A program made the position numbers and the translations under genes. From Promethearchaeota archaeon (GTDB lineage: Archaea > Asgardarchaeota > Heimdallarchaeia > Hodarchaeales > Hodarchaeaceae): a DNA stretch of 64,000 nt. The DNA is taken from contig JBHLMN010000012.1 in NCBI GenBank assembly GCA_048938105.1, forward strand, positions 32,001 to 96,000, in the 5' to 3' direction. Below the pieces are notes generated by a model that saw only the letters and a program-made list of their open reading frames with translations, had not been told where the DNA came from and did no database searches. Shown piece by piece: positions 1,599 to 60,707 of the stretch; the stretch's first letter is position 1; each line of letters opens with the position of its first letter.

Positions 1599-1626
1599 AT
1601 GTCGCAAAAGGCTGGTATAGATAGCA
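1599..1626 (-). repeat. 28-bp dif-like site, copy 1
   Basis: Top strand ATGTCGCAAAA-GGCTGG-TATAGATAGCA; conserved arm plus CCAGCC spacer on the minus strand. Confidence 0.75.
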
Positions 1627-2296
1627 AAAATGCCTACTATACATCACCCCATTCTTCTATACTTGATTTTGGTTGAGAGCTCATCATAAAATAGAAGTAG
1701 TATAAATCCTGACTCCAAAGTTTTTGATAATTGGGAGAATGCAATCAAAATAAAGGCTAGAATTAATCAAATTGTATCAGAGTTTTGAATTAATATTAAG
1801 CCGAGAATACAAGGGAAACCACCGCTCCAACAAGAATTGTGGCAATTCCAGAGGCGCAAAGTATCGAATTTATGGAATACGTTGCTAATGCGACTGTGAA
1901 AGCATCAAATGACATTTTCAATACTCTTTTCATTTTTTTTGCTCCATGGATTCTTGTATTTCGGTGGCAGCATAAAGAAATGAGAGGACTTCTCATTTAC
2001 ACAAGCTCGTGAATTTTTCCTTCTTAAGAATCAGGAGCCTTGTGGTTTCCCGGATTCATCGAACCTGCCAAATATTCCAATTGTATTACTCCTAATAAAG
2101 GTTTGCACAAACATATTTCTGGTATGAAAGGTTATAACATAATCACTTGTACCGTCAAATATTATAAACACATTTATGTTCGAGTGATAATATTGCTACA
2201 AACAGAATCAAAAGAATATAAGAAAAAAGATGATTAAGATAAAGTAATACCTGTTTATTTAGACATTGGTTTCGAGAAAACAAATTTTACAAGTGA

Positions 2297-2324
2297 ATGT
2301 CGTCAAACCACCATTATCCCACTG
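2297..2324 (+). repeat. 28-bp dif-like site, copy 2
   Basis: ATGTCGTCAAA-CCACCA-TTATCCCACTG; left arm identical to copies 4 and 11. Confidence 0.65.
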
Positions 2325-2565
2325 TTTTATTATTACAACAATTGAAAAACATTGAGGAGGATTAAAAAAAGTTTCTCAGAATTCAAGTTCAATACTTATT
2401 TCTACCATGGTATTCCCATTGCAATAAAGAGAATTTTTCTTAGCCTTTTCAATATCTGCAATTACATCATTAGAAGGATGGGGGGAATATAAATCTGACG
2501 CAGATGCGAACACCTAATGTTTCGAAGGAAAAAAGGGAATTAATGAATATATTGTTTTACTTTTT

Positions 2566-2593
2566 TTTTCGTAAAAGTCTGGATTAGCACCTT
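2566..2593 (-). repeat. 28-bp dif-like site, copy 3
   Basis: Top strand TTTTCGTAAAA-GTCTGG-ATTAGCACCTT. Confidence 0.6.
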
Positions 2594-2693
2594 TGGAAAA
2601 TATTTAATGTCAATAATTGAATGATATTGTTTTACACTATTTTTACTAGCCATTATTCAGACAAATTCTTTTAATAAAACTTCTCTACAATTT

Positions 2694-5288
2694 TCATGTG
2701 TCAAAGACACCTTCTTTTATTTTTAGAGGATTTCCTACTAGGAGAAGTTTGACTTCCCCTTGATATTTCAAAGATTTCAGTGAATTTGGTATTTTTTTCA
2801 ACTTATTATAAGACAAATTTAATTGTTTGAGTCTATTTAGTTTCTTTATCGATTCTGGGACATCAATCAGTTGATTATATGATATATTTAAGTTCTGTAA
2901 TTTCTCGAGGTGGCCAATTGTTTCTGGTATGTGTTTTAATTGGTTGTTCCATAAATTTAAAGATTTTAGTTCGGTGAGGTGAGTGATTGTATCAGGTATC
3001 TGTGTTAGTTTGTTATCTGCTAGATCTAAGTTCTGTAATTCCTTGAGATGACCAATTGTTTCTGGTATGTGTGTCAGTCTGTTACTTGACAGATCTAAAT
3101 CTTTTAATTGAGTGAGACGGGTAATTGCGTCAATAAAATTGGTTAGTTGATTGTCTGATAAATTTAAAGATCTTAATTGTGTAAGATGGGTAATTGTGTC
3201 AGGTAAACTAGTCAATAAATTATCTGTGAAGTCCAGATCTTGTAAATGGGTATGTTGTTTTATTGTCTCTGGTATTTGTGTCAGTTGGAGATCAATTAAA
3301 TCTAGATCATAAAATTGATCCAGTTGGTCAGTCGATTCAGGTTGGTTAGTCCTTTGTTTATTTGATAGATCAATAGAAATCAAGTTTCCATTAGTATCAG
3401 GATAAAGATAATCAGAATACGGTGAAGATATATTGGAATTTGAAATTAATTCGAATAACAATTGAGGAATAATCCAACGGTTCTTTCCTGATTTAAGAAT
3501 GGTCCAAATCCATAACTCTTCCCAAATTTCTTTTGGATTTGTACGATTGAATTTTTTCTCTAAAAATTGGTTGGTTTTTTCTATTTCTATGTTTAAAATA
3601 TCTCTTGATCTCTTCAAAAGTGATGAATCGTCACATTGCTGGATAATACTCTTGTACCAATGAGCTAAATTAGTATGAGGAAAAATCCAGTGCTTGTTTT
3701 CCATTTTTCCAATAGATATCAAACCAATTATTCTTGCTATTCCACCTAATCTTTTCCTAATTCGTTTTTGGAGTTTTTTGCCTGGGATTCTGTCAAAATA
3801 CGATTGAACAATTGCTATACGAGCAAGTTCATAACCTATCTTGATAATAATTCGTTCTTGTTCACTAGTGTCGAATCGTTGAGTTTTTCTTTTGTTATAT
3901 TGCAGATAATGATTTATTGAGCTGTGTAAGGTACTCAACAGGATCTTTTCATATAACGTCTTTAAATGATCCAATGTTATTGTCTCATGACAAAACGGGT
4001 CATTTGTCTTGATGATTAGGTCTGACCAACTACTTAATGCCAATCTGGTCAAAACTAGATCGTTTTCTGTTAAACTAATGAAGTGTTTTCGTAATGCTTT
4101 ATAAGGAGGTAAATCCTGTAAATTTCTATCAACAATTGTTGCTTTAAGTAAGGCATCGCAAGACAAAAGAAAATGAAACTCTATTTTTGCATTTTCCATC
4201 CATTGATCTTCAATAAAAGGATTTTCTTCAAGTGGTCGTGATAGAAACCAGGTATGAATTTTTATTGTTTTGTTGTCTTGCTGATTTGCATTATATGATA
4301 AAGTATCACAGATTTTACTTATATTTTTCATAGTTCGGAATGGATCGGTTACCAAATGGAGATCATCCAACACAAAACATATAATTTGATGTTTATTCCA
4401 ATCTGCTTCTGCGATCAGTTTAATATCTTTTTCTAAGGTTTGACTCGTAATATAAGGATCGTCCCAAGTCTTTTCTTTGAATGAATAGTAAAAAGAGTTG
4501 AATTGAAATTCATCTGCCCCTAAATAACGATTCTTTGTTTCAAACATGACTTTACTGAAGGGCTGTTTACTTAAGTCTCTCTCATTCAAAAGATCCTCTA
4601 AAAATGCCATCATGCCTAATGCTTGACTAGTTTTTCCTCCTCCTGCTGATTCTGTTGTAAACGCGACTTGATAATTCGAAAAGGCCTCGATTAAGCGTTT
4701 AAACGCTTTTTCTGAAATTGGTGCCCAGCTTCTAAAATCTGTGAGTGTAACCCAAGGATATAATTCAGAAGTAGTTTTGTTCTTTATCCTAAATATTAAA
4801 GGTGTTTCTTTTAAGTATGATAGACTAAGCTTTGGGGATTTCTTCACTTTTTGCTTTATGGGAATATAATTCTCTGGTTTTAAGACTTCTAATATTGATA
4901 GAACTATCTGCTTCAATCCTTTTTCGGTTTTGATTGCGCTAAGATTAGCTAAAAATGGAGAATGGTGTAAAAAATCGTCACGTGATATTCCATGCCAGAT
5001 TGGCAAAATGAACTTACCCTCTTTGATTTGTCTTTGGATCAAACCATCTAGTTCATATTCAGGCCATTCTTTTGCAAAAAATGCTTGGCTAAAAACAACA
5101 ACGGCAAATCGTGATTTCTGAATTCCTTCGTCTATTTTTTTTCTTAAATTATCCCCGAGAGTTAAACTTATTTCATCATAAAAAACCTTTATTCCATGTA
5201 ATTCTAGATCTTTTGCTAATGGTTTTACAAGCTCCTCCTTGTCTTCAGAAGCATGACAGATAAATAGATCATATGTGAATTCAGACAT
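2694..5288 (-). CDS. TIR - P-loop NTPase (STAND-like) - leucine-rich repeat protein (NLR-like architecture)
   Basis: N-terminal TIR (YDLFICHASEDK...WPEYEL, catalytic Glu kept); variant Walker A ESAGGGKTS; Walker B CFVLDDLH; about 8 C-terminal 23-aa LRRs (LxxLxLxxNxLxxIPxxI). Confidence 0.85.
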   Translation of the reverse strand: MSEFTYDLFICHASEDKEELVKPLAKDLELHGIKVFYDEISLTLGDNLRKKIDEGIQKSRFAVVVFSQAFFAKEWPEYELDGLIQRQIKEGKFILPIWHGISRDDFLHHSPFLANLSAIKTEKGLKQIVLSILEVLKPENYIPIKQKVKKSPKLSLSYLKETPLIFRIKNKTTSELYPWVTLTDFRSWAPISEKAFKRLIEAFSNYQVAFTTESAGGGKTSQALGMMAFLEDLLNERDLSKQPFSKVMFETKNRYLGADEFQFNSFYYSFKEKTWDDPYITSQTLEKDIKLIAEADWNKHQIICFVLDDLHLVTDPFRTMKNISKICDTLSYNANQQDNKTIKIHTWFLSRPLEENPFIEDQWMENAKIEFHFLLSCDALLKATIVDRNLQDLPPYKALRKHFISLTENDLVLTRLALSSWSDLIIKTNDPFCHETITLDHLKTLYEKILLSTLHSSINHYLQYNKRKTQRFDTSEQERIIIKIGYELARIAIVQSYFDRIPGKKLQKRIRKRLGGIARIIGLISIGKMENKHWIFPHTNLAHWYKSIIQQCDDSSLLKRSRDILNIEIEKTNQFLEKKFNRTNPKEIWEELWIWTILKSGKNRWIIPQLLFELISNSNISSPYSDYLYPDTNGNLISIDLSNKQRTNQPESTDQLDQFYDLDLIDLQLTQIPETIKQHTHLQDLDFTDNLLTSLPDTITHLTQLRSLNLSDNQLTNFIDAITRLTQLKDLDLSSNRLTHIPETIGHLKELQNLDLADNKLTQIPDTITHLTELKSLNLWNNQLKHIPETIGHLEKLQNLNISYNQLIDVPESIKKLNRLKQLNLSYNKLKKIPNSLKSLKYQGEVKLLLVGNPLKIKEGVFDT
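2740..3310 (-). repeat. LRR-coding tandem repeats (69-bp period; approximate limits)
   Basis: Near-identical units such as HIPETIGHL (x2) and PDTITHLT (x2); DNA repeat CCAATTGTTTCTGGTATGTGT occurs twice. Confidence 0.85.
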
Positions 5289-5351
5289 TTATCTTACCTT
5301 ATAAACAACATCTGGTCACTAAGAGCAACAAATAACAATAAAATCATCTCT

Positions 5352-6440
5352 TCATAAATCTTGCAAGAATTTATCCAGACTATGAAGCTCTGAAACCTCT
5401 AAAAGATTATTAGCTGTCATTGTATTTTGATATTGTTTCACATTCTTATAGAACCGTGGGATTGCACGCGAATGTTCTTTAAACTCTCCTTTTTTCATAT
5501 AACCAACGAAATAAATGTTGGTATCGTATATCCATATATTCTCCCAATCATTTTGAAGAATACATACTTTTTCTCGTGTTTTCCTCCTTACTTTAAAACC
5601 GAATTTTGGTTCAATAATCTCTCTAGGCATATCAGTTTCTGCTTTAATTGTTAAAGTTCCTTGAGGAATCATTCCATTAGGTACATGGACATAGAAAAGT
5701 TGAAAGAAACTGTTTTGCGTTTTAGATTTTGGAGGGTTGCCTTTTAAAATTACTTTTTCAAACATAAACTTTCTATAACTTGATGTTCCTCCGATTACGA
5801 TTTCTTTACTATGATCATCTTCGTTATTGGAGATGATAGTGATTCGACCGAGTTGGGATGGTCCATAGGCTTTTATGAACTTCTGAGGTTTCACCCATGC
5901 ATATTCCCAAAAGGAGTGTATAAAGTATTTTTTGTATCTACTTTCTTGGAATGAATCAAGGTCAATACAACCATTATCTGGAGTTAATTTACCAGTTACA
6001 AACGCAAAAATGTAGAAATCATCGTCTATCATTGATTTAGCTTTCAATTGATCTGATGGTACTAAAGCTGCACAATCTAGAAGCCATTTGGTAGATGAAG
6101 GAGATAAATCCCCAATATTCTTTGATTCTAGATAAGAAGAATCAAGATCTAGAAAAAATGATTTGATATCACATTTGTGAGTGTTTATAGTAAGACTATA
6201 ACGATCAACATCGTACCACTTGGTTCCCCTTTCTTTTTCATACATTACGTTTTTAGTTTCTAGTAACTCTTCAAAAGCAAGTTCAGGAATGATTCCCTTT
6301 ACAAGATTTTTCATCCGGTAATATGGATTTGCGCTTGACATTCTATTAAAGGTCGAGTTTAAAGCTTTTTCTGCATATTTTATACCTTGAAGTATCCATT
6401 TGTCTTTGGTTTCTATGTGTATTATATCTTCATCAAGCAT
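5352..6440 (-). CDS. Putative PD-(D/E)xK restriction-endonuclease-like protein
   Basis: KGIIPELAFEELL helix followed by D...CDIKS, resembling type II REase active sites; directly upstream of, and co-oriented with, the TIR-NTPase-LRR gene. Confidence 0.45.
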   Translation of the reverse strand: MLDEDIIHIETKDKWILQGIKYAEKALNSTFNRMSSANPYYRMKNLVKGIIPELAFEELLETKNVMYEKERGTKWYDVDRYSLTINTHKCDIKSFFLDLDSSYLESKNIGDLSPSSTKWLLDCAALVPSDQLKAKSMIDDDFYIFAFVTGKLTPDNGCIDLDSFQESRYKKYFIHSFWEYAWVKPQKFIKAYGPSQLGRITIISNNEDDHSKEIVIGGTSSYRKFMFEKVILKGNPPKSKTQNSFFQLFYVHVPNGMIPQGTLTIKAETDMPREIIEPKFGFKVRRKTREKVCILQNDWENIWIYDTNIYFVGYMKKGEFKEHSRAIPRFYKNVKQYQNTMTANNLLEVSELHSLDKFLQDL

Positions 6441-7003
6441 TTTTTATCTCTCATAGCATGAAAAGTTTGTGGTTTTAGCTAAAGTAAAAACTTTTCTCTG
6501 CTTTAGTGTACGTAAGTATAAATCGGATTCTAATCACTTTTTATTTGGCTTCTGAAAGAATACACAATGGATTATAATTTTGAAAAACTGTTCTTTAATA
6601 GGCTTAAAACTTCTTTAATCTTATCTCTTGGATTCATTTTTCTACTTTTCATTTTGAAACGATAAACCCTCATCAAGAGTCTAGGATCTTAATTTCAGAG
6701 ACATTAACAGAAATGGGTGTTACAAAGGGTAGTTTAATTAATCTAGATACTAATGGAACTTCTGAAAAAGCACATTGTTAAACTAACCTCCCAGATATTT
6801 GTAAAAAGTTCGATAGCTATTTTCTAGTTTGATCTAAGTTAATTTATTAATTTTTTACACAGATAAGATAAGAGTAAATGGACTTTTAATAGCAAATTAA
6901 AGAGATAAATTTTAGTTATAATGATTAGATAATGCTTTATTATTCAATTGAACAATAGCTAGAAAAGTCGATTAGTATAATCATTAGCTTTATTCGAAAA
7001 GAA

Positions 7004-7981
7004 ATGGAATTGAGATATGTTATGTATCAAGACTATATTATTTATCTTCGTCAAGGAGCAGACCGATGGAATACTTGGCGTCATAAAAATCCTAGAATAA
7101 AACCTAATCTATCACGACAGATATTTCCTAAACTTGATTTGTCAGAATTTGACTTTTCTTACACCGATTTTTCCAACTCGAATCTTTCTGAATTGAACCT
7201 ATCAGAATCAGTGTTGTATAAAGCTAATTTTTCATATTCTGATCTTTCTAATACCGATCTTTCGAAAACAAGCCTATATTATACTACTTTTTTTCGAACT
7301 GATCTAAGGAATACTAATTTTTCTCTATCTAAACTACGTGGTACGAGTTTCACTTTCACTGATCTTAGTCAATCTAAATATTTAGATACAATCGAACATC
7401 AAGGTCCGAGCAGCATTGATATCTCTACTCTTCATCAGTCAAAAAAACTTCCTAAAAGCTTTTTACGGGGATTAGGAGTTCCTGAACTGTATATCAGGAA
7501 TCTTTCAGTATTTATTACACATGAATGGCAATTCTATACCTGTTTTATTTCCCATAGTAGTCATGATAAGGCTTTTGTACGAAAGCTTTATAATGCTCTT
7601 CAACATCAAGGAATCCGTTGTTGGTATGATAAAGAAGATGCTACATGGGGGAAAGAAATCAAACCGATTCTTAATGAAAAAATCGAAGAGTTTGACAAAG
7701 TTGTGGTTGTTTGCAGTGAAGATTCCCTCAAATCAGAATGGGTAAATCATGAGATTGAAAGAGCTTTGCAAAAGGAAGAAAAGAACCGAGAAATCGAATC
7801 TATACCTGAAATCTTATTCCCTATAATAATAGATAAGTCCCTCTCTAATTGGCTAAATCATCTAAAGAAGTTTGGAGTAGAACGTATTATCGGGGACTTC
7901 TATGATTGGAGGAGTCCAATAAAATTTAATCAGAGCCTCACACGATTGGTGCAGGCCTTAAAGAGTGATTCCCCACGATAA
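7004..7981 (+). CDS. Pentapeptide-repeat + C-terminal TIR protein
   Basis: WNTWRHKNP cap, (x)DLS/(x)NFS pentapeptide repeats, then TIR CFISHSSHDK...SEWVNHEI with catalytic Glu. Confidence 0.9.
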   Translation: MELRYVMYQDYIIYLRQGADRWNTWRHKNPRIKPNLSRQIFPKLDLSEFDFSYTDFSNSNLSELNLSESVLYKANFSYSDLSNTDLSKTSLYYTTFFRTDLRNTNFSLSKLRGTSFTFTDLSQSKYLDTIEHQGPSSIDISTLHQSKKLPKSFLRGLGVPELYIRNLSVFITHEWQFYTCFISHSSHDKAFVRKLYNALQHQGIRCWYDKEDATWGKEIKPILNEKIEEFDKVVVVCSEDSLKSEWVNHEIERALQKEEKNREIESIPEILFPIIIDKSLSNWLNHLKKFGVERIIGDFYDWRSPIKFNQSLTRLVQALKSDSPR

Positions 7982-8044
7982 TACAATAATGTAATCTAAC
8001 CCTAACTTGGATTTTATAAAACTATGATTTTCTTTATTACCTCC

Positions 8045-8458
8045 CTACTCATGATATGCAGTATATTGAAAAGCATGAGTTAAGGCTCTTCTTATATTTA
8101 TTCTGTCCCACTGAAAGATAGGAATACTCTTAGTCGAAATGAGGTGTGGTGGTACGAAGCGATTTGGAGTAACAACAATAGCTGCAATTCCGATATGTAG
8201 AGAACTCGCCACTGATAATTCATGGTCGACCCACTCACTTTGAAAGGTATTTTGTCCAAGTAAACAAACCAAAGCACGGCAGGGATTAATCAATTCATTG
8301 AGATATTTTCGCACTTCATCATACCCATATATTCTATAATCCTCTCGTGCTGAAATCGGGGTATGATTAAATTTGGCATTGGGATTTTGCATTAGTCCTT
8401 CAAATGCTTCTCGATAGTCTCGATCTTTTTCCTTATAACTAACGAAAACTTTTGCCAT
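8045..8458 (-). CDS. thsB: Thoeris ThsB-like TIR (MTH538/DUF1863 type)
   Basis: KVFVSY...LVCLLGQNTFQSEWVDHEL; stand-alone 137-aa TIR. Confidence 0.75.
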   Translation of the reverse strand: MAKVFVSYKEKDRDYREAFEGLMQNPNAKFNHTPISAREDYRIYGYDEVRKYLNELINPCRALVCLLGQNTFQSEWVDHELSVASSLHIGIAAIVVTPNRFVPPHLISTKSIPIFQWDRINIRRALTHAFQYTAYHE

Positions 8459-8665
8459 ATTTTCTACGCCAAAGTATTACTTAATTTCTAGTTAAGAAGG
8501 AATACATCATATACATGTTCGAAAAGTTTATTTATTATACTTATTAGATTCTTCCTAAAAATCCTTCAACGATTAATAGCACTATAAAGTAAAAAGGTTG
8601 AGGGAATTAAGTTATCCAAATAAAGAATCAAAATTGTGTTATCAATAAAAACATGGGGAAGTTAA

Positions 8666-9202
8666 ATGACTAAGCGACACAAAGTATTTTTATGTTTTCA
8701 TCATGAAAATGATGAGAACTATAAGAACCAATTCGAGCAAAAATTTGGTAGTTTGTATGTATCAAAATCAGTGGAGATAGGAGACATTGATCCTAATTTA
8801 AAAACAGAAACAATAAGACGTAAGATAAGAGATGAATATTTAAGAGATTCAACTGTAACAGTTGTTCTTGTTGGCAAAGAAACATGGAAAAGAAAACATG
8901 TGGATTGGGAAATTTCTTCTAGTATTCGACATACTCAATACAATCCTAGATCTGGTCTCCTAGGACTTATTCTGCCCACACATCCAAATTTTTCTACAGA
9001 AACATATGATCCGCATATCATTCCTCCACGATTATATGATAATATTGAATGTGGATTTGCTAAAATTTATAATTGGACCGATGATGTTTCAACAATTGAA
9101 CAGCGTATCCATGACGCTTTTCAACGTAAGGATAAAATTCTACCAGACAATTCAAGATTACTCTTCAAGAATAACCGCTCTGGGGATAAATGGCAAGATT
9201 GA
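8666..9202 (+). CDS. thsB: Thoeris ThsB-like TIR (MTH538/DUF1863 type)
   Basis: HKVFLCFHH...DSTVTVVLVGKETWKRKHVDWEI...GLLGLILP...PPRL. Confidence 0.85.
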   Translation: MTKRHKVFLCFHHENDENYKNQFEQKFGSLYVSKSVEIGDIDPNLKTETIRRKIRDEYLRDSTVTVVLVGKETWKRKHVDWEISSSIRHTQYNPRSGLLGLILPTHPNFSTETYDPHIIPPRLYDNIECGFAKIYNWTDDVSTIEQRIHDAFQRKDKILPDNSRLLFKNNRSGDKWQD

Positions 9203-9332
9203 AAAAACAAATTTTCCAATTAGAACTAATCTCAGTTTAAATTCGTCTTTTTCCTTAGTATCATTTAAAAAGAGAAATTTAGCTCCTCTTGGAACAGAAA
9301 ACCTTTTCTCATATTTAAATGAGGAGTTTATT

Positions 9333-9863
9333 ATGCCAAAAGTAAAAGAGGTTACTGTTAATATCGGAGTTAAGGATGTTTTTTCAATAAGTGGTACTTT
9401 TGTTCCAAACAAAAATGAAGAAGAGGCTGCCTGGGAATTATATGTAGAATTGATAACCCGAATCACAGTTGTTAAGCTAAAAAAAGACAAAGGTTTTCTG
9501 AGAGAAGCATTAAATTCTTATCATAGTTTATTTAAGACAACAAGGGGAATTATGCGGGAAAAAGGCCCAGATTTAGCAAGACCCAAATCAAGTAGTAAAA
9601 TTACACTTGGTTTAATAGCTGTTTCAGTTTTAAATTATGTTTTAAGGCCATTGCTGACAGAATGGCACCCAATTTTAGAAGATTATGAATCGACACGTCC
9701 AAAAAACCTTTCACGAAAAGCTCATGAAGATAAATGGGAAAACAACAAAGACCTAAGAGATAAAATTGCTGAGACTAGAGAAACTTTACTACATTATGCC
9801 CAGCTACTTGCTGATATTGCAAAAGTTGAACCAATCCACATTGTTCCAGCTCCTCTTACCTAG
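9333..9863 (+). CDS. Conserved helical hypothetical protein downstream of thsB
   Basis: ATG at 9333 preceded by GAGGAG; motifs AAWELYVELITR, LREALNSYHSLF, LRPLLTEWHP. The ORF-track start at 9006 overlaps thsB and is unlikely. Confidence 0.75.
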   Translation: MPKVKEVTVNIGVKDVFSISGTFVPNKNEEEAAWELYVELITRITVVKLKKDKGFLREALNSYHSLFKTTRGIMREKGPDLARPKSSSKITLGLIAVSVLNYVLRPLLTEWHPILEDYESTRPKNLSRKAHEDKWENNKDLRDKIAETRETLLHYAQLLADIAKVEPIHIVPAPLT

Positions 9864-10006: not shown

Positions 10007-10034
10007 ATGTCGTCAAACCAGCCTGAGAGAAGCT
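10007..10034 (+). repeat. 28-bp dif-like site, copy 4
   Basis: ATGTCGTCAAA-CCAGCC-TGAGAGAAGCT, between two convergent gene ends. Confidence 0.75.
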
Positions 10035-10081
10035 TTCTGAGGGAATAGAAGCCCCTAAGAAAGATAATTAATTGTAAAATA

Positions 10082-10823: not shown

Positions 10824-10927
10824 TTCAACCTAAGGGAATTGTAAGATTTGAGAATTTATAAAGATATGTGGTTATCTTATGTTACAATTTAGATTTGTTG
10901 AAGTTTTTGGTGAATAATTTTGAACTA

Positions 10928-10955
10928 ATGTCGTAAAAGGTTGATTTGCCACATA
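10928..10955 (-). repeat. 28-bp dif-like site, copy 5
   Basis: Top strand ATGTCGTAAAA-GGTTGA-TTTGCCACATA; both arms recognisable. Confidence 0.75.
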
Positions 10956-47910: not shown

Positions 47911-47919
47911 GGAATCTTT

Positions 47920-51677: not shown

Positions 51678-51685
51678 ATTTAAGT

Positions 51686-53884
51686 GTGAATCATATGCCT
51701 TTAGCTTTAAACATTGGTTATACTCCAGCACAGATAGATTTTTTTGACAGAAAATTCAATAAAATCAAAGAATATATTGATTTCGTAGATATTAAGTCCT
51801 CATTCCTAGTACAAAGAAACTCTATTGCCTCTATTGTACGAGCTTTAAGTTCCAAAAGTATTCGAGCATTTCTAGAAAGTGGTGGATTTTTTAATTTAAA
51901 TTTTGATGTGCCTAGAGATAGTAATTATATACCTGTTAATTCCACAAAATCCAAGAATAATTTCTTAGACTTTATAACTGAATTCAGTGACACACCTGCT
52001 TATTTCCAAGATAGTTGTAATAATCTAATCCTCCCAGTGATTTTAGATGGTGATAGTTCATTAAATCATCAGTACAAAAATTCTCTTTCGAATTTTATAT
52101 TAAATAATCTAAATAAAATTGATCGAATCTTCGATAAGCTCCTGATTAGATATCATTTTATAAAAAACAATTCAGAAATTGAATATTATATTAACGAGAT
52201 TGAAAGATACGAGGGGGATTATAAAAATAATATTAAGGAAAGTTTTTCTTTGTTTCTCAATATACCAGAGTGGCATCAGAAATTAGGGCAAAAAAAAACT
52301 CTACAATTATTGAGAAAACTTCGAGACACTGGTAGGAAAGTAGAAGTTTACCAAATTGCCGACTACCAGATCATAGATAATCAGGTACATTCTAATATAA
52401 CCATTGGTGAGGGGAGAATATCTTGGAGACCTTTCCTCAGTTACTTTAAAAATTCAAACATATTACTAGCAACAAAAGACGGCATTTCGTCAGTAAAAAA
52501 AAGTATGGCGCATTTAGGGGAAATTTCGATTAACAAGAAAGATAGAATTGATGGGAATTCCGTTGTTACGGGATTCTTTTTTTCTAGGGATAAAAAATCA
52601 TTCTTTCAATCGTCACCTGGTACAAAAATGGCATTAAAGTATATTAAGGACAATAAAATTAATGTAAACTCGATTCTAGATTTAGGTTGTGGAAATGGGA
52701 GGAATTCTTTTTATCTATCAAAAAATATAGATGCGAAAGCACATCTAATAGATATTGACAGAGATTTGTTAAACTATGTTAAGCTTAAATTCAAAACTTT
52801 TAATGTTAAAACTCCAGAGATAGAGGTAATAGATCTGGAAAATTTCGACCTATCACTTTTTAATACTAAATATGATATTACACTGCTTAGTTATGTGCTT
52901 CAGAATATATTTCCTGCTAATTATTTCAAATTGATGGATTTCTGTAGGATTATAACAAGAAAACTAATGATTTTCGAGATCTATGTCAATTTAAATGTTT
53001 ATCCAGAAGGAATGGTTACAAAACGAGGAGAGACTTTTTGGTATGGCTTTTCAAGCGATGAAGTCTTTAAATTATTTGAATCCTTTTTCGACGTAATAGG
53101 ATGGGATGTGAAAAAAGGAAAAGCGAATCCTTTAATGATTTCAATTGTTGGTAAACCGAGGGATACTGTAACAAATGGGGAAAGTATTTTAAGGCGGTAT
53201 AATAACATACAAACAGTTGACTATAGCTCAATAAGAAAGATTTATCCCAAGAAACAGGTTTCAACTAGAAAAAAAGTAAAAACAATTAGTTCTACAAAAA
53301 GAAAAGAGAGAATGATTGATAAAACTAACACAGATCATTGGAGGATACTATCCTCTCATTTATTGTCTACTGGATTGAGTAAAACTCAAATCAGTGTTTT
53401 GGAGTCAAAACTAGAAGAACTTGATTCATCATATAAACTAAAAGCTCCAGAAAATTTTGGTGCCTTACTTTTTTTAGTTGCTAGATTAAATCGCATTCCG
53501 ATTCATCTACAAGAGATTGTCAAGATTCTTGATGTTCGTAGGAAAGATATTCATCGTACAATGAAAGAAATTCAATATAGACATAATATCGCACGTAATC
53601 TTCCAAGTTTAGAAGCTTTTTTTGAACGATATTTTACAATTTTAAATCTAAATGAAATTTACGAAAGATCTCCTTCAGAGATCATTGAAGAAATAAAGAA
53701 TAATTATAACTGTAACCTTCTGGGATCCTTGCCTCACATATCAGCTCTAGCTATTGCAATACATCTTTTACGGTCTTCTGATAAAAGATCTAACCCTTCT
53801 CAGCTTGCTAGAAAAGTGTATATTTCCCCCTCTTCTCTTAAAAACAAACTTAGATTATTAGAAGGTATTCAGCTGGTTCAGTAA
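51686..53884 (+). CDS. Multidomain protein: unknown N-terminal domain, class I SAM methyltransferase, C-terminal TFIIB-like cyclin repeats
   Basis: ILDLGCGNGRNS, LIDID, YDITLLSYVLQ; C-terminal ALLFLVARLNRIPIHLQEI ... SQLARKVYISPSSLKNKLRLL. Confidence 0.75.
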   Translation: MNHMPLALNIGYTPAQIDFFDRKFNKIKEYIDFVDIKSSFLVQRNSIASIVRALSSKSIRAFLESGGFFNLNFDVPRDSNYIPVNSTKSKNNFLDFITEFSDTPAYFQDSCNNLILPVILDGDSSLNHQYKNSLSNFILNNLNKIDRIFDKLLIRYHFIKNNSEIEYYINEIERYEGDYKNNIKESFSLFLNIPEWHQKLGQKKTLQLLRKLRDTGRKVEVYQIADYQIIDNQVHSNITIGEGRISWRPFLSYFKNSNILLATKDGISSVKKSMAHLGEISINKKDRIDGNSVVTGFFFSRDKKSFFQSSPGTKMALKYIKDNKINVNSILDLGCGNGRNSFYLSKNIDAKAHLIDIDRDLLNYVKLKFKTFNVKTPEIEVIDLENFDLSLFNTKYDITLLSYVLQNIFPANYFKLMDFCRIITRKLMIFEIYVNLNVYPEGMVTKRGETFWYGFSSDEVFKLFESFFDVIGWDVKKGKANPLMISIVGKPRDTVTNGESILRRYNNIQTVDYSSIRKIYPKKQVSTRKKVKTISSTKRKERMIDKTNTDHWRILSSHLLSTGLSKTQISVLESKLEELDSSYKLKAPENFGALLFLVARLNRIPIHLQEIVKILDVRRKDIHRTMKEIQYRHNIARNLPSLEAFFERYFTILNLNEIYERSPSEIIEEIKNNYNCNLLGSLPHISALAIAIHLLRSSDKRSNPSQLARKVYISPSSLKNKLRLLEGIQLVQ

Positions 53885-53889
53885 CAATT

Positions 53890-55125
53890 GTGGTAAATAT
53901 GGATCCATATGAATTTAGAAATTCTATTCCTCTTCTACGAAACAATCCAGATATCGTCTATTTAGATTCAGCTACAACTACATTAATTCCTGATACTGTA
54001 ATACAACGAATGAAAGAATTTTATGAAGAAATTGGGGTCATTCCAAATCGTGGAGCTTATGATTTAGTACTTCAATCAAATAAGACTTTAAATAAGGTAC
54101 GAAATAGTGTCTCGAATTTTTTTAATGTTGATTTTAATAGAATCGCCTTCACAACGAGTACTTCACATGGTTCTGCAACAGCGATCGCTGTTACAAACCT
54201 TACAAAGAAAGATAGAGTTTTATTTGCATCAAATTTACACAATTCGTCATTTTTAAATTGGTTTAGATTTGTACAAAAGAACTCAATAAATTTTGACTTC
54301 ATTAAATTGAATAAAGATGGTCAAGTCTTAATAGATGATTTAGAAGATAAAATTTCTCTGAAGATTCCCGGTAGAACAATAGTAGTTTTAGATCATGCAC
54401 CAATGGGTTTTGGTACGTTATTAAATTTAAATGTTGCATCAGAGGTAATACATAACACAAAAGATTCATATCTTTTTCTTGATGCTACTAGAACAGCTGG
54501 CTTAGTAGATTTAGATATATCAAGAGAAAATATTGATTATCTTGTCTGTCAAAGCCATGTGGGATTCTTTGCTCCTCCTGGAACAGGGATACTTATCGTT
54601 CCAGAGGAAGTTAATGGTGAACCATGTTATATAGGTTCAGGATCTGTAATTGACACTTCTAAAGAGTACTATCATTTATCCCCCTATCCTAATAGTGTTG
54701 AAATTGATAGTGTTAATATTGGAGGTTTAGTTGGATTAGAAGCTGGTATAAAATTGCTTAATGAAATTGGGATAAATGAAATCAGAAATCATTGTATGAA
54801 ATTAATCGAAATCTTCTGTAAAAATGTAGAAATGAGTGATGATATTCTTTTATTTGGATCATCTGATCCTTTAAGTCGGTCAAATTTACTTAGCATTAAA
54901 TTTAAAAATATAAGCTGTCATGACCTTGCCTTTTATGTTCATGAATTGGGAAAAATTTGTGTTCGATCTGGAAGTCTTTGTAGTCATCTACTTATTAGAG
55001 AAATTAATTCTAATATTAATAATGGATTTACACAATTCTCATTTAACTATTATAATACGGAGTTGGATTTAAAAAAAGCAATTGAAATTCTCAACTCAAT
55101 AAATATGAAAAAAAAAGAATTATAA
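53890..55125 (+). CDS. Cysteine desulfurase-like (class V aminotransferase, SufS/DndA-like)
   Basis: YLDSATTT, NRGAY, FTTSTS, LDAT, RSGSLCSH (catalytic Cys). The PLP Lys position reads SHVG. Confidence 0.85.
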   Translation: MVNMDPYEFRNSIPLLRNNPDIVYLDSATTTLIPDTVIQRMKEFYEEIGVIPNRGAYDLVLQSNKTLNKVRNSVSNFFNVDFNRIAFTTSTSHGSATAIAVTNLTKKDRVLFASNLHNSSFLNWFRFVQKNSINFDFIKLNKDGQVLIDDLEDKISLKIPGRTIVVLDHAPMGFGTLLNLNVASEVIHNTKDSYLFLDATRTAGLVDLDISRENIDYLVCQSHVGFFAPPGTGILIVPEEVNGEPCYIGSGSVIDTSKEYYHLSPYPNSVEIDSVNIGGLVGLEAGIKLLNEIGINEIRNHCMKLIEIFCKNVEMSDDILLFGSSDPLSRSNLLSIKFKNISCHDLAFYVHELGKICVRSGSLCSHLLIREINSNINNGFTQFSFNYYNTELDLKKAIEILNSINMKKKEL

Positions 55126-55136
55126 TGTGAAACTCT

Positions 55137-57335
55137 TCATAATTTCATAAGGAGATTGTTAATATCAAATAATTCTTTCATTAATTCATGCTTGTTTTCT
55201 GCATAATCTGCGAAGAAAGTAATTCTTTGATTTTCAATTCTAATTATGTTTTTTGCTAGTCTTGGATGTCTTTCCATTTGATTTGAATTTGGTAGGACTA
55301 TTATATCATAGATTACAACTGGTTCTTCCTTTTTTTTGTTTTTTCTTAGTATTCTACCAGCTCTTTGAATATGTTCTAATGCGGATCCTGAGCTTGCCAT
55401 AAAGATTGCTTTTTCCAAACATGGTATGTCTACGCCTTGGTCTAGGCATTTCATTGCAATTAGTGTATTTATATCTTTATTTGCTAAATTGTTAATATAG
55501 ATTTGCCTTTCTTTGTTATCCATGTTACCATCAATCAGATTAAAACTAATTTTAAACTGTTTTTGTGAATACAATTCCATAATAACGCTTCTTACATCTC
55601 GTGTAATATGCTCTTTATCTCTACAATATATTACACATTTCTCGAACTCTTTCTTATTGATTAAGTCAAGTATGATCGATTTTAAAACTTTTCTTTTGTG
55701 CTTACATTTTTTTATTATATCTGCTCTTTGATTGAGTAATATGGTTCTATAATCCTCTCTTGCTATGCCCCTAATTTTACTTATTTGTGTTGATAAATCT
55801 TCATATTGTTTGATATCATTATCGTCAAAATAACATTTGAAAATTTTGTACTCAAATTTACAGACAACGCCAAGCTCTTGAGCATCTTTCAGCGTTAGTT
55901 CATACAGATCCCTATTTTCATTAAGAAACCAATCAAGTATTTTTAGAGTTCCTTCCTCATCAAAATGTCTTTGAGGAGTAGCACTAAGACCAATTTTATA
56001 GTCGGGGTTAAAATTTTCCATTAAAAATATTCCTGTAGGTGTTCCAAGGCTATGTGCTTCGTCGGCAATAAATAAAACCCTTGATCTCTTGCTTAATCCT
56101 TTTTTATTAATAACCTCTCTATTTAAAATCTCGGGTTTAAGCGATTTGTATGTTCCAACTATATAGCAGTGATCTTGCTCTAATAGCAGTATTTTATCTA
56201 TGTGATTCCGTAGTTCTTTCTTCCAAGTAGGGTTCTCATGGTAGCATTTGATAACATATTTCGAATATCTATTTAATTCTTTATACCATTGATCAACTAA
56301 ATATCTATCAGGAACCCCAATAATAGTTATAAGTTTTAATCCTTCTTTCTTAAGTTTTAAATATAAATTATAACTAGCAAAAATCGATGTTTTAGTTTTT
56401 CCTGTTCCTGTTGCCATTGCAAGAAATCCAATGAACTTATTCTTATCCAAGTGATCCAATGCATCTCTTTGAGGTTCCCATGGTTTATCTTTCTCGATGT
56501 TGGGTATTAATAACCCTTCAGTGAAATTCCAAGTAGAATTCTTGCTAAATTCCTCAAACAATTTGTAAAAAGAAGTGGTTTTTATGTGTTCATTAAAAAC
56601 GTGATCAAAATGAGAAAAATTTATTTTATTTAAATCTTTAGGTTTGTATTTTGAGATAATATAATCTTTTAATCCTTTGGGAAAAGAAGAAACTTTAAGA
56701 CATGAATCTTTGTTATCCCAATATAATTGAAATTTCTCAAAATCCAATTGTGCATATTTTTTTGTATCATCCCAACTTCTAAACGTTTTTATTTCTTCAC
56801 GATTTTGTGACCAAGCCATATAAGTCATGTTTGAAGAACCTGAAAACGAAATATAATCTTGACCATCACTCAAAATCCCAATCTTTTCGTGTAAAATCCT
56901 CTCGAATAATAATTCCGATATTTTTTCTTCTGTACTAAATACTGGAATTGCAAATTTGATTTCTATTCTATTATAGTACAATAACCAGGCTAATAATTTA
57001 TAATGTTCATCTAGATCAGACCTTAAATTTATTTGATTAAGAAAATCCTCCTTGAGGATCTCTTCAAAATTCTCTGCTAACTCATTTCTTGCCATTAAAA
57101 GTAAATTTAATTCCTGATTTCTTGGAACTCCAATGATGATTTTTATTTTTCCATTATTTTTTTGGATAAAATTATACAATCCGTAAAATAATGGAATAAA
57201 AATCTTTGCTGAAAAATATCCAGTAATATACCAAAATTTTTTTGATTCATTGAGTACAGGTACTAAAAATTCATCAAAAAGGTTATCCCAACCCGTTGTA
57301 TAACTAATTTTGAGTTCCAAGTCCCTTAAAGGCAA
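55137..57335 (-). CDS. pbeA: PLD + SF2 (DEAH) helicase, phosphorothioation-associated restriction component (PbeA-like)
   Basis: TGYFS, LHEKIGILSD...GSSNMT; MATGTGKT, DEAH, GLSATP, LDQGVDIP, QRAGRILR. Confidence 0.8.
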   Translation of the reverse strand: MPLRDLELKISYTTGWDNLFDEFLVPVLNESKKFWYITGYFSAKIFIPLFYGLYNFIQKNNGKIKIIIGVPRNQELNLLLMARNELAENFEEILKEDFLNQINLRSDLDEHYKLLAWLLYYNRIEIKFAIPVFSTEEKISELLFERILHEKIGILSDGQDYISFSGSSNMTYMAWSQNREEIKTFRSWDDTKKYAQLDFEKFQLYWDNKDSCLKVSSFPKGLKDYIISKYKPKDLNKINFSHFDHVFNEHIKTTSFYKLFEEFSKNSTWNFTEGLLIPNIEKDKPWEPQRDALDHLDKNKFIGFLAMATGTGKTKTSIFASYNLYLKLKKEGLKLITIIGVPDRYLVDQWYKELNRYSKYVIKCYHENPTWKKELRNHIDKILLLEQDHCYIVGTYKSLKPEILNREVINKKGLSKRSRVLFIADEAHSLGTPTGIFLMENFNPDYKIGLSATPQRHFDEEGTLKILDWFLNENRDLYELTLKDAQELGVVCKFEYKIFKCYFDDNDIKQYEDLSTQISKIRGIAREDYRTILLNQRADIIKKCKHKRKVLKSIILDLINKKEFEKCVIYCRDKEHITRDVRSVIMELYSQKQFKISFNLIDGNMDNKERQIYINNLANKDINTLIAMKCLDQGVDIPCLEKAIFMASSGSALEHIQRAGRILRKNKKKEEPVVIYDIIVLPNSNQMERHPRLAKNIIRIENQRITFFADYAENKHELMKELFDINNLLMKL

Positions 57336-57370
57336 TTTAATTCTTCCTATTCAGAGAATAAGGGCATTGA

Positions 57371-57898
57371 TTATTGTTTCTCTTTAATATCATCTTTTAT
57401 TTCGTCTTCCCACTCAATAAGGTTAAAATCTTCGAGTAACTCCGAGTCTGGTGCATCAGCAAGACATATTAATTTAAAATTCCTTTCTCGTGGTAAATTC
57501 CATCCTCCCTTGAAATATTCTTCTGCAATTCGTGAGCATTCACTAAGATCCAACAAAATTTTGTGAATATAATCTCGTTTTTCTTCATTTCTCCCAATTT
57601 CATCCAACATATGACCATAAGCAATTGTTTTTAATATAAAGCCCACTTCTTCACGATCTGATAGTGATGGTACGTTAACGGAATCAGTTTTTTCACGTTT
57701 ACTCCTAGGTAATTCTTTAGGTGATCTACCATTTGCGAATGAGCGAGTAACGCCAATTATAAATCCATCTATTAACCTATTTTTGAAGGAACATTGTTGA
57801 TATCTCTTTTTTTTATCTTTAATCTCTTTTAATATGTCATTAGCCTCAATTTCTAAGTATATATTCCTGTATAAAGTCTGTTTTTCCTTTTTTGACAT
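57371..57898 (-). CDS. Phosphorothioation-associated small protein (dnd-associated protein 4 / PbeD-like)
   Basis: C-terminal IAEEYFKGG resembling the EEYANGG motif; position after the SMC-like ATPase. Confidence 0.6.
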   Translation of the reverse strand: MSKKEKQTLYRNIYLEIEANDILKEIKDKKKRYQQCSFKNRLIDGFIIGVTRSFANGRSPKELPRSKREKTDSVNVPSLSDREEVGFILKTIAYGHMLDEIGRNEEKRDYIHKILLDLSECSRIAEEYFKGGWNLPRERNFKLICLADAPDSELLEDFNLIEWEDEIKDDIKEKQ

Positions 57899-57899
57899 G

Positions 57900-59990
57900 C
57901 TATTTCCTCACTAATTTAGCATTATCATTTTTTGGATTTTCTATTTCATATTTTATTCCAATTTTTTGGTCAAAAATTGGTCTTAAATCTTCTATTTCAT
58001 TAATATCAGGTTTAGTGGCAAGTAAATTATTTTCCTTAGCAAAGAAAATAATTTGATTCCCTGAATATATTCCTGGTAATTTTTCGACAACTTGTTTTCG
58101 AGTTTCTGAGTCGATATTCCCAAAAGGAGAGTCAAAAATTAAAGGTAATTCGACATCTAGTACTTTTGCCAATGAAGATATAAAGGACATTCCTACAATA
58201 TTAGTTTGACCAGTCGATGTATTCATAATTTTTGAACCAGAACTAAAGATGGCCTCAAAAATCCATCCTTTTCCAATATCTTTTATGTTTAATGACAACC
58301 AATTTTCTGGATCTCTTACTAAAGTTTTTAATGTCTCTAAAGTTTCTTCCTCACACTTTTTTCGAATAACTTCAGCTACATTCTCTTCAATTTCAGAAAT
58401 TATTTTTAAATAAAATTCAGTTAAAGATCTACATTTTTGATAACATTCAGACTTGTCAGTAGATTTATCTGTTTCAGATACCATTTTATTATATTGTTTT
58501 TCCGCGTTTAGCTTATCATTTTTGATGTTATCAATTTCCATAAGGTAGTGCAGTTTATCTTGTTCAATTGATCCGATTAATTGATCTCCCAAAGAAATTT
58601 GATTTTCTAAATCTATAATTTCTTGATACCATTCTTCTGATTGTTCTTCAGGTGTTAATTTCGTTTTTAGTACATCAATTTTTGTTTTTATTTCAATAAC
58701 CTCTTGATTTATTTTTAGAAATTCCTTTTGATTTTCTAAAATGCTTTGTTTCCCAGTCTTAAGCAATTTTAACTTTGCTCCTAATTCTGCTTCAAATTTA
58801 ATTGCAGTTTCCCCTAAAATACTATTATCAGCCTTTTTTAGTATTTTATTTATTCTTGCCTTCATTTCAGTATTCCAAGGAGTTCCACAAACACAAGATC
58901 CATGTCTTTCTAATATTGTTTGAAGTACCTCTGATGTAAGTTTTCCAGGAATAATGTCTTTTTCTCTTTTCTCCTTAATATCCTTTAAAATCCTTTTCAT
59001 TGTTTGTTCTAAATATAGAATCGGTAAAAATTGCATCAATAACCTTTCTCGCCTCTCGATGATCTGATCCCTCCTTATTGCTTTCTCCTCTAATTTTTGA
59101 ATCAAATTATTATAGTCTCTTACGAAATCAATCTTACCTTGAACATTTTGTCTTCTGTTCCTTAATTCAGCTAATTCTGATCTTCTAATTTCTAGTTCAG
59201 TTATCTTCTCTGCTACTTTTGTTTCCAATTCTTTTTTCTTTTTTCCAAAATTTTCAATTTCCTCTTTCTTATCCTTTAATTTCTTGCCTTTGGCAGTCAC
59301 AGCTAAGTATTTATTTTGGAAGTAATTACTTGCTCTATCAAGATAAACTTGCAAAGTTTTTATTTTTGGATAATCTGAAATATCCAATGAATAATTTTTC
59401 AAATTCCCTACATTCTCAATAGATAATAAATGATTTAATCCTTCACCAAAAATGAACACGAAATCCCTCATTGATCTAGGAAAATATTTGTTAATCAAAT
59501 TTAAATATATTTCATCTGGATTTGGTACTTTTGATGCATTTTTATAGATTAACTTTCTTTCTGATTTCTTCAATTTTCCATTAGCAAACTGTATCCCTTT
59601 AGCGGTTTTCTTAAATTTTATATATCGATGTAATTCTAAAAAATTTAAGTTTCCAGAACGATCAATTTGTTCAAGTTCAATGCATCCCCCAACTTCAAAA
59701 CTGTTACCTACCTCTATTTTTCTTTTTACTACAGAGTTGGCTGCTTCTTTAATATTATGATCAGTAAAAAATTTGAGTTCCTTTAGCATTTCTTTCTCAT
59801 CAAATGATGGGAATAAAATCCAGTACATTAATTGAAATATCGAACTCTTACCAGAACCTGTATCACCAAGAAACAAAGTTACATTTTTTTCTTTATCAAC
59901 GGAAAATAACATTTCGTGTTCTCCAACAAATGGACCGAAATTAAGAATTCTCATTTTTTTGAAGGTTAAGCGAGGATTTTGAACCAACAT
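57900..59990 (-). CDS. DndD/PbeC-like SMC-type ATPase
   Basis: NFGPF, GDTGSGKSS, FIFGE, central CVCG, STGQ, IFDSPFGNID. Confidence 0.85.
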   Translation of the reverse strand: MLVQNPRLTFKKMRILNFGPFVGEHEMLFSVDKEKNVTLFLGDTGSGKSSIFQLMYWILFPSFDEKEMLKELKFFTDHNIKEAANSVVKRKIEVGNSFEVGGCIELEQIDRSGNLNFLELHRYIKFKKTAKGIQFANGKLKKSERKLIYKNASKVPNPDEIYLNLINKYFPRSMRDFVFIFGEGLNHLLSIENVGNLKNYSLDISDYPKIKTLQVYLDRASNYFQNKYLAVTAKGKKLKDKKEEIENFGKKKKELETKVAEKITELEIRRSELAELRNRRQNVQGKIDFVRDYNNLIQKLEEKAIRRDQIIERRERLLMQFLPILYLEQTMKRILKDIKEKREKDIIPGKLTSEVLQTILERHGSCVCGTPWNTEMKARINKILKKADNSILGETAIKFEAELGAKLKLLKTGKQSILENQKEFLKINQEVIEIKTKIDVLKTKLTPEEQSEEWYQEIIDLENQISLGDQLIGSIEQDKLHYLMEIDNIKNDKLNAEKQYNKMVSETDKSTDKSECYQKCRSLTEFYLKIISEIEENVAEVIRKKCEEETLETLKTLVRDPENWLSLNIKDIGKGWIFEAIFSSGSKIMNTSTGQTNIVGMSFISSLAKVLDVELPLIFDSPFGNIDSETRKQVVEKLPGIYSGNQIIFFAKENNLLATKPDINEIEDLRPIFDQKIGIKYEIENPKNDNAKLVRK

Positions 59991-59994
59991 AGCG

Positions 59995-60240
59995 TTAGCT
60001 TCCTACTCCGTGTTTGATTTTACTCATCTTTTCTATTATTTGGTTATACATATGATCGATTTTTTGTTTTTTTGCTTTATTTTCCTCATAAGGCCATTCT
60101 TTTTCAAAATAAATAAATTCAAATAGCTCATTGAAGAAATTAAATGGATCACCTATTTCTTTTTTAACATCTTCAGGAATTACTTTCTCCCAAGTTGATT
60201 TATACTCATTTAATAGAGTTTTAAAATTAATTTTCTTCAT
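59995..60240 (-). CDS. Small protein heading the pbe-like operon (PbeB-like by position)
   Basis: 81 aa, GGGGAAG SD, 4 bp before the ATPase gene. Confidence 0.55.
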   Translation of the reverse strand: MKKINFKTLLNEYKSTWEKVIPEDVKKEIGDPFNFFNELFEFIYFEKEWPYEENKAKKQKIDHMYNQIIEKMSKIKHGVGS

Positions 60241-60679
60241 TAAGAAGTCTTCCCCTATTTTACGTTCTTAAAAATAGTTTAGACTAAGCTCTACTATTTT
60301 TGTATTCATAATAAATAAGAATTTTACTCGTGAATATTGGATTGTCACAAGAGTAGTAATATTAAAACCTATTGATTTTTATGAATTTTTCAAACAACCT
60401 ATATACTTCTATAAACTATTTATCACATTTTAGAAGCAGCGAATTTTCATTACAATCTGTACTAAAAGCTTATTAACAAAATTAAGAAGAGAACGGACTT
60501 TTCTTAACTTTTATAATAAGGAAGTCAATTTTTTCAATAGAATGTTATATCAATGCAATTTGGTAAAGGAATCTATTGGTTATTTTCCTAGATTTTACAA
60601 TATTGAAATTCTGTCCAGTTTTTTCTTGCATCATTTTATATAAATAAAAAGGCTATAAAATTAATATTCGATTTCTTTT

Positions 60680-60707
60680 TCGTCGCAAAATGGCACTTTG
60701 ACGACAT
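60680..60707 (-). repeat. 28-bp dif-like site, copy 11 (both arms intact; right island border)
   Basis: Top strand TCGTCGCAAAA-TGGCAC-TTTGACGACAT; an 11-6-11 imperfect palindrome. Confidence 0.8.

Follow-up and report, generated by a model that had tools for sequence, protein, structure and literature searches.

Xer-type core sites probably join defense modules into variable arrays in Hodarchaeales genomes

A 64,000-nucleotide stretch of a Promethearchaeota archaeon genome (GCA_048938105.1, contig JBHLMN010000012.1, positions 32,001 to 96,000; hereafter the window) carries a defense island in which 28-bp elements recur between groups of genes. The host belongs to the Hodarchaeales, which count among the known archaea most closely related to eukaryotes. 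On the strength of sequence comparison, we propose, with a probability of roughly two in three, that these elements are core sites at which an Xer-type tyrosine recombinase joins modules of several genes, most of them antiviral in the present case, into long, variable arrays. In the proposed mechanism, a recombinase dimer would bind two arms, one strong (TTTKRCGACAT) and one weaker (GGTGYTAAT), that flank an asymmetric 6-bp spacer (CCAGCC), and crossover in the spacer between two sites would lead to excision, insertion, exchange, or inversion of the intervening DNA. The best candidate enzyme would be the single-copy XerA of the host (C14:173949-174839); since no recombinase is found in or near the arrays, the enzyme would act in trans. 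An earlier note on the window had suggested that a trans-acting tyrosine recombinase assembled or shuffled its defense modules. That idea is supported here by the clustering of the sites, by homology breaks at them, and by an XerA ortholog whose gene is preceded by the same arm, XerA being the probable enzyme.

Below, G000 is the host genome (5.85 Mb in 65 contigs, 35% G+C), in which the window is C63:32001-96000, and G001 to G020 are sister genomes representing 20 species of the same genus. Positions given without a contig are those of the window.

Site classes in the window

All 11 copies located by the earlier note are present, on the strands it gave. All are intergenic, and three of them (at 10007, 29579, and 40653) lie between convergent gene ends. 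They are of three kinds: eight class A sites, two class B sites, and one full palindrome. The single 28-bp consensus initially fitted to them proved to be a composite of two classes, with no window copy within 3 mismatches of it. Class A follows the consensus GGTGYTAAT-CCAGCC-TTTTRCGACAT, i.e., a weak conserved left arm, the spacer, and a strong right arm, while class B has an exact left arm, ATGTCGTCAAA, followed by CCAGCC and a variable remainder. Most copies had been described as keeping one arm plus the spacer, with a second arm that had diverged. There is indeed one strong arm, but the left arm of class A, taken for divergent, has a conserved sequence of its own (GGTGYTAAT) and agrees with the strong arm at 5 of 9 positions.

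Class A sites on the reverse strand lie at 1599..1626 (TGCTATCTATA-CCAGCC-TTTTGCGACAT; 24.2 bits), 2566..2593 (AAGGTGCTAAT-CCAGAC-TTTTACGAAAA; 33.5 bits), and 10928..10955 (spacer TCAACC; 20.4 bits). Those on the forward strand lie at 18609..18636 (ACGGTGTTAAT-CCAACC-TTTTGCGACAC; 36.2 bits), 29579..29606 (34.5 bits), 35445..35472 (24.8 bits, 3 mismatches in the 18-mer core), 36937..36964 (27.6 bits), and 40653..40680 (31.2 bits), the last of the array. Both class B sites are on the forward strand, one at 2297..2324, where the exact strong arm ATGTCGTCAAA precedes a degenerate spacer (CCACCA), and one at 10007..10034 (ATGTCGTCAAA-CCAGCC-variable). A profile built from 25 seed copies from the genome (threshold, ≥14 bits; control, the reversed profile) recovered exactly the eight class A sites in the window, at 20 to 36 bits, compared with ~0.2 matches per 64 kb for the control. 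The 15-mer core had seven window matches at ≤2 mismatches, versus 0.06 expected. The profile scan found class A sites absent from the window beyond 40.7 kb (to 64 kb), so the phosphorothioation (PT)/Pbe block there is not partitioned. The copy at the right edge of the island (60680..60707, −; ATGTCGTCAAA-GTGCCA-TTTTGCGACGA) is a full 11-6-11 palindrome that keeps both arms, as had been claimed, and its arms are those of the array sites. Its spacer, however, is GTGCCA and not CCAGCC, and it belongs to a separate, dispersed class of palindromes.

Site arrays across the genome and the genus

The profile gave 65 matches in G000 versus 17 for its reverse, and 50 of the 65 were on five array contigs (C63, C39, C43, C5, and C13), where variable arrays cover ~210 kb on contigs of up to 273 kb. 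The array in the window extends ~31 kb to the left of it and onto the four other contigs. Scanning the genome and its relatives, as the earlier note had recommended, thus found the sites clustered in variable arrays and not scattered at housekeeping promoters. Class A sites were almost always intergenic (47 of 50) in DNA with a coding density of 78 to 89%; they sit near the 3′ ends of genes of both orientations, and convergent genes often flank them. Neighboring class A pairs were mostly co-oriented (38 of 45) regardless of gene strand, with 63 genes running along the site direction versus 56 against it (no strand bias). The modules between sites have a median length of 2.9 kb and usually hold 1 to 4 genes. 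Orientation switches twice on C63, once within the window between 10928(−) and 18609(+), and class B(+) sites alternate with class A(−) sites in C63:18971-42947, an alternation limited to that stretch.

Among strong-arm matches, the only enriched spacers were CCAGCC (with arm TTTTR) and its complement GGCTGG (with arm TTTGA). Since only these two combinations were enriched, A and B are two defined classes rather than products of random decay, and the same spacer analysis found no other large site family in G000. In an ungapped alignment of 52 genomic copies, conservation was confined to positions −5 to +21, i.e., a discrete element of ~26 to 28 bp. Because conservation stops at ~28 bp, the sites are not the ends of insertion sequences (IS) or miniature inverted-repeat transposable elements (MITEs). 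That candidate, which the earlier note had wanted checked, was rejected for want of any conservation outside those positions and of any associated transposase, with one TnpB insertion found beside a site. Three further candidates were also rejected: att sites derived from tRNA fragments (neither the window nor any of eight related array loci contains a tRNA, and there were no Rfam matches), an origin of the motif in coding sequence (GW... codons; no codon periodicity, and the sites are intergenic), and a relationship to Heimdallarchaeum aloposons, which are defined by giant genes and tRNA integration.

The motif was present in 17 of the 20 sister species, clustered at 1- to 6-kb spacing, and was almost absent from other genera of the class. 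In G000, its 13-mer TAATCCAGCCTTT is among the commonest nontrivial 13-mers, on par with the tRNA T-arm. Exact motif matches in one-genome-per-species collections came from metagenome-assembled genomes (MAGs) titled Candidatus Hodarchaeota or Heimdallarchaeota, including the complete chromosome CP070695.1, while ~30 single exact matches in unrelated bacteria correspond to the chance expectation for 596 Gb. Exact-match scans of IMG/VR for viral or plasmid carriers gave only high-GC chance matches.

Some loci within or near the arrays have additional features. An "empty module" of ~85 bp splits a class A site at G000 C39:249490-249600, reading [strong arm]-GGCTGC-AGTACTTCGCA, 56 nt, and TGCGAAGTACT-GGCTGG-ATTAACACA. 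Its inner 11-mers are exact reverse complements of each other and unique in the genome, and circularization of this piece would create, at the junction, a perfect 11-6-11 palindrome whose arms are foreign. Compared with G009, the TnpB insertion (G000 C13:9195-10723) adds 1.5 kb at a distance of 46 nt from a class A site and encodes a 434-aa TnpB with Cas12f-like TNB and OrfB_IS605 domains; it recalls the IS1202-family elements that target plasmid dif (pdif) sites in Acinetobacter. Across G000 as a whole, a 16-mer, ACAGACATCAGACCGA, has 13 to 15 copies.

Homology breaks at the sites

Homology and synteny breaks coincide with the sites, as the earlier note had predicted for recombination joints. 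We compared all arrays between species, using 46 array stretches from 12 sister species and 200 randomizations. Among all homology blocks (336 informative ends), 9.8% of ends were within 15 nt of a spacer (1.2% expected) and 31.5% were within 100 nt (7.5% expected). For blocks of ≥90% identity, the corresponding values were 13.5% (1.2% expected) and 38.5% (7.7% expected). The observed values were reached in 0 of the 200 randomizations, the excess within 15 nt being ~8- to 11-fold, and five module pairs were bounded by sites at both ends.

Individual modules illustrate these joints. Six or more sister species have homologs of the 0.9-kb module at 10035-10927, within contexts that are unrelated. 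In G018 and G020, contig homology to it begins exactly at the class B site at 10007, and in G003, homology ends at the arm/spacer edge of the class A site at 10928, where G000 continues with GGTTGA and G003 with CCAGCC. A second module, C63:24525-25526, matches G003:C109 (WORE3 contig) over 1,004 nt at 89% identity; in each of the two genomes it is flanked by sites on both sides, and its neighbors differ. A third, C39:249585-250502, matches G003:C47 over 918 nt at 95% identity, from the spacer exactly; it is likewise site-bounded in both genomes with different neighbors. The G003:C47 copy of this module adjoins a homolog of the 0.9-kb window module, which in G000 is on another contig. The class B site at C63:21010 is itself a junction, its left flank matching C63:27066-27168 and its right flank C43:8385-8912, and a 2.9-kb G020 contig brings together, as a mosaic, three modules dispersed across G000.

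Candidate recombinases and dispersed palindromes

The earlier note had found no recombinase in the window, and this holds for the whole contig: PF00589 and serine recombinase searches found neither a tyrosine nor a serine recombinase on any array contig. G000 has three PF00589 genes, on C14, on C56, and as a broken copy on C45. The C14 protein has SAM-like and catalytic domains and scores 283 bits on the NF040815 XerA model (cutoff, 220); its best solved relative is Pyrococcus abyssi XerA (4A8E, 1.8e-59), with which its catalytic residues align. The gene is single-copy in 19 of the 20 sister genomes, with 70 to 91% identity in 16. In 16 species, the strong arm (≤1 mismatch) is found 10 to 35 nt upstream of the xerA start, in opposite orientations in two clades, in one of which it lies between a TATA-like box and the start codon. 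This pattern suggests selection rather than inheritance alone. The earlier note had suggested looking for an intact site near xerA or at the replication terminus; near xerA, it is the arm that is present. We consider XerA the likely enzyme, and we infer that circular module intermediates exist and that the shuffling system is active today.

Other candidate enzymes fared less well. The second Xer-like integrase of G000 (C56:201270-202139) adjoins a NikA-like gene. Serine recombinases were rejected, their four matches all being away from the arrays, as was a 434-aa gene found beside sites in two arrays, which encodes TnpB in one and a subtilase in the other, mutually unrelated proteins of which neither is a recombinase.

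In 20 of the 21 genomes there are 1 to 8 full 11-6-11 palindromes that, like the one at the right edge of the island, combine these arms with spacers that vary; when the pattern was reversed as a control, the 21 genomes together yielded a single site, in G020. The palindromes of G009 and G015 that were examined are at synteny breaks relative to G000. The most palindromes of the set (8 each) are in G001 and G016, which are without class A sites and whose xerA orthologs (G001:C5:210961-212088 and G016:C16:37629-38753) are a divergent 428-aa open frame in which N-terminal-like sequence is matched twice. A promoter-like element was also recognized, in which the strong arm is followed after ~6 nt by TATAATTGTTAAAGCTAGCTTT, which contains the palindrome AAAGCTAGCTTT. 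Its loci in G000 (C53:84125, C53:230157, C52:1765/2119, C28:2325, C14:88510, C63:99840, and C9:161960) usually precede small genes and have a full 11-6-11 palindrome within a few kb.

Contrary evidence and alternative explanations

Several findings weigh against recombination by a Xer-type enzyme as the source of the arrays. Approximately 85% of homology-block ends are >30 nt from a recognized site, and many of these distant ends coincide with the 3′ ends of genes, 50 to 100 nt short of a site. (A second motif at the unexplained ends was considered and rejected, as it is the 3′ end of a conserved gene.) The class B spacer runs opposite to those of its class A neighbors, and the 0.9-kb module is bordered by a class A site in G000 and by a class B site in G003, so simple conservative exchange does not explain these joints. 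The products expected of a B(+)/A(−) inversion, a full site and an armless site, both exist (G017:C82:263 and C39:249575), but no module was seen in both inversion states. The 10-mer arm alone is not overrepresented genome-wide (59 occurrences versus 66 for the control). G001 and G016 have XerA and palindromes, while lacking class A sites and the arm upstream of xerA. Examination of palindromes and synteny did not identify a chromosomal dif, and instead of a single site per chromosome there are dozens of array copies; a recurrent palindrome with a CAAGAC spacer was rejected as dif because it sits inside a conserved gene. Finally, MAGs are incomplete, and a dedicated integrase may have escaped detection.

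Such an integrase is the core of one alternative, in which the elements are true recombination sites but are served by a dedicated tyrosine recombinase encoded elsewhere (C56:201270-202139, its relatives, or an unbinned element) and not by XerA. We regard this as unlikely. It draws on the two further PF00589 genes of G000 (C56 and the broken C45 copy), on C56-type relatives in about half of the genus, on arm-like sequences ~600 nt from two of these relatives, and on a G009 palindrome next to a homolog of the DNA flanking the C56 integrase. However, XerA is the sole PF00589 match in G013 (91% complete), G014 (95%), G003, and G004, all of which have arrays, with 5 to 8 sites each. In addition, the upstream arm is conserved for xerA in 16 species and not for the second integrase of G000, and the C56 protein falls below every NCBIfam cutoff.

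Two other explanations deny the elements a role as Xer sites. In the first, they bind a regulator or chromatin protein (as operators, terminator-associated elements, or domain boundaries), and shuffling is a by-product of homologous recombination between short repeats. The operator-like position of the arm between a TATA-like box and the xerA start would suit such a role, as would the arm plus TATAATTGTTAAAGCTAGCTTT promoter-like element at no fewer than eight loci, the position of sites at gene 3′ ends, and the coincidence of archaeal dif regions with SMC domain boundaries (PMC11840125). Nevertheless, we find this improbable: site orientation is uniform over tens of kilobases regardless of gene strand, with many sites between convergent genes, 28 bp is short for homologous recombination, breaks fall at the spacer edge, class A sites are unable to form a hairpin, and an 11-6-11 arrangement with a fixed asymmetric spacer is the layout of a recombinase core site. 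The second explanation is a classical integron or an integrase-less attC cluster (CALIN), as reported for Asgard MAGs, in which integrons are reportedly enriched (PMC9668308). Although the co-oriented sites, the unrelated genes between them, and the lack of a nearby integrase resemble such clusters, single strands around seven sites gave no folding signal (z-scores, −1.5 to +1.8), and conservation spans only ~28 bp versus the imperfect palindrome of 55 to 141 nt in attC. Moreover, the best score on the TIGR02249 integron-integrase model was 173 bits versus a cutoff of 265, no PF00589 match was on an array contig, and the modules are multi-gene (median, 2.9 kb; 1 to 4 genes) with genes on both strands (63 versus 56). 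We consider an integron origin very improbable indeed. Xer-type core sites served by the host XerA remain our preferred explanation.

Gene content of the island

The window genes are confirmed, by their sequence matches, to make up a defense island. The sites separate the blocks of genes that the earlier note had described, except that its toxin-antitoxin (TA) pair is unconfirmed and the PT/Pbe block is not partitioned. A TIR cluster module (2694..9863) encodes TIR-leucine-rich repeat, TIR-pentapeptide, and ThsB-like TIR proteins along with unknowns. It is followed by the 0.9-kb module (10035..10927, −), whose two genes encode 85 and 166 aa. This is the former TA pair, for which we found only a weak UPF0175 match, no solved relative, and no other toxin or antitoxin domain. 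No module of the array system is more widespread in the genus than the one formed by these two genes (10082-10823, −), which has matches in at least six species. The next module (10956..18608) lies between inverted class A sites with their weak arms inward and encodes a 1,315-aa metallophosphoesterase protein, MatE, a GT2 glycosyltransferase, and an unknown. A module at 18637..29578 encodes a pVip viperin (294 bits), an MkoA-like SF1 helicase, a DrmC-like phospholipase D (PLD) nuclease, and CARF/HTH-like small proteins, and one at 29607..35444 encodes an AAA ATPase and a HerA helicase fused to a Cas4-like PD-(D/E)XK nuclease. Two shorter modules hold a trypsin-like protease (35473-36936) and an HD-CE protein with two unknowns (36965-40652). 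The 20-kb block without sites (40681..60679) encodes a DndD/LmuB-like ATPase, a BrxP/DndC-like phosphoadenosine phosphosulfate (PAPS) reductase, a methyltransferase, a DndA/SspA desulfurase, PbeA (499 bits), and PbeC.

To the right of the island, an amidohydrolase-like gene (61482-61640, −) is reduced to its first ~50 codons; it is intact, at 331 aa, in G011 (L118:2469-3464). The remainder of the gene was not found in the G000 assembly, where there was only a 41%-identical paralog on C41. Adjoining the truncation point is a 44-nt repeat, TATCTTGTGAAAGATGTCGAGGGATGACAGATAGTGTTGGACTT (61437-61480), which matches no Rfam family and occurs also at C63:97256-97300, G009:C1:3089797, and G012:C406:8995. 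The earlier reading of the DNA as archaeal agrees with the rRNA operon of G000, which had its top scores on archaeal models. Its small-subunit rRNA gene (C9:1693-3924) spans 2.2 kb versus 1.48 kb for the model, which indicates an insertion of ~750 nt, possibly an intron.

Significance and comparison with known systems

No description of such an Asgard or Hodarchaeales Xer-site system was found in full-text literature searches, and this probable archaeal, chromosomal variant of Xer-site module shuffling is new. A broader proposal is that Hodarchaeales use housekeeping XerA to drive a genus-wide exchange platform, with chromosomal arrays of hundreds of kilobases in which defense modules are excised, inserted, and inverted at dif-like sites of fixed spacer, and with two interleaved classes, A and B, producing layouts of both the integron and the pdif type. 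As a module system driven by Xer, it would be the first in Archaea, and also the first at such a scale on a chromosome; we see the chances for and against this proposal as about equal. If modules are indeed joined in this manner, it would explain how Asgard archaea assemble and exchange large islands of viperin, TIR, Mokosh-like, HerA, and Dnd/Pbe systems without nearby integrases or transposases. XerA and two sites should then also recombine, possibly offering a simple recombination tool with orthogonal spacers. The 28-bp site is, in addition, a concrete marker for accessory modules in metagenomes.

The closest analog in its working is the dif modules of Acinetobacter Rep_3 plasmids, which are acted on by the host XerC/XerD (PMC13141974, PMC6449649). 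In both systems, 28-bp 11-6-11 sites bound modules of accessory genes. The modules lack a recombinase and would depend on host Xer proteins in trans (here, probably XerA), and they are reshuffled, inverted, and shared between replicons. The alternation of opposite-spacer sites in C63:18971-42947 also resembles that of C/D and D/C sites. The systems differ in host and replicon (an archaeon with chromosomal arrays of ~210 kb versus Rep_3/OrfX plasmids), in enzyme (a single XerA versus XerC plus XerD), and in site arrangement (38 of 45 pairs co-oriented versus strict alternation). A single fixed spacer, CCAGCC, runs through the whole family here, and the cargo is mainly antiviral defense versus antibiotic resistance. 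Integrons and CALINs, including archaeal integrons (PMC9668308), share the long variable arrays, the co-oriented sites, the unrelated accessory genes, and the reordering of cassettes between species. In contrast to them, the arrays described here have no IntI, attI/Pc platform, or folded attC, and their multi-gene modules run in either direction and are joined at a double-stranded dif-like core. Integrative mobile elements exploiting Xer (IMEX), such as the CTX, VGJ, and TLC phages and the gonococcal island, are integrase-less elements joined at the single chromosomal dif via host Xer. They resemble the present modules in lacking an integrase, in their dif-like flanks, and in their reliance on host Xer, which here is presumed, but the dozens of sites in our arrays are away from any identified dif, and the modules are not phages.

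Archaeal XerA and dif are known for chromosome-dimer resolution (PMC2958812, PMC11840125) and share with the present system the recombinase family of its probable enzyme (the NCBIfam XerA equivalog) and the 11-6-11 geometry. The dif arm of Thermococcus kodakarensis, to which XerA binding was observed by chromatin immunoprecipitation sequencing (ChIP-seq) (PMC11840125), matches the right arm of our sites at 7 of 11 positions, and the dif-like element upstream of xerA in haloarchaea (PMC11840125) parallels the arm found upstream of xerA here. A chromosome normally has just one, conserved dif, whereas here there are dozens of copies, most with one weak arm, marking module joints. To our knowledge, genes are moved in modules that carry no recombinase of their own by two established routes, integrons and the dif modules of Acinetobacter. 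The arrays described here, if our reading is correct, would constitute a third such route, archaeal and chromosomal, built on the enzyme that resolves the host chromosome.

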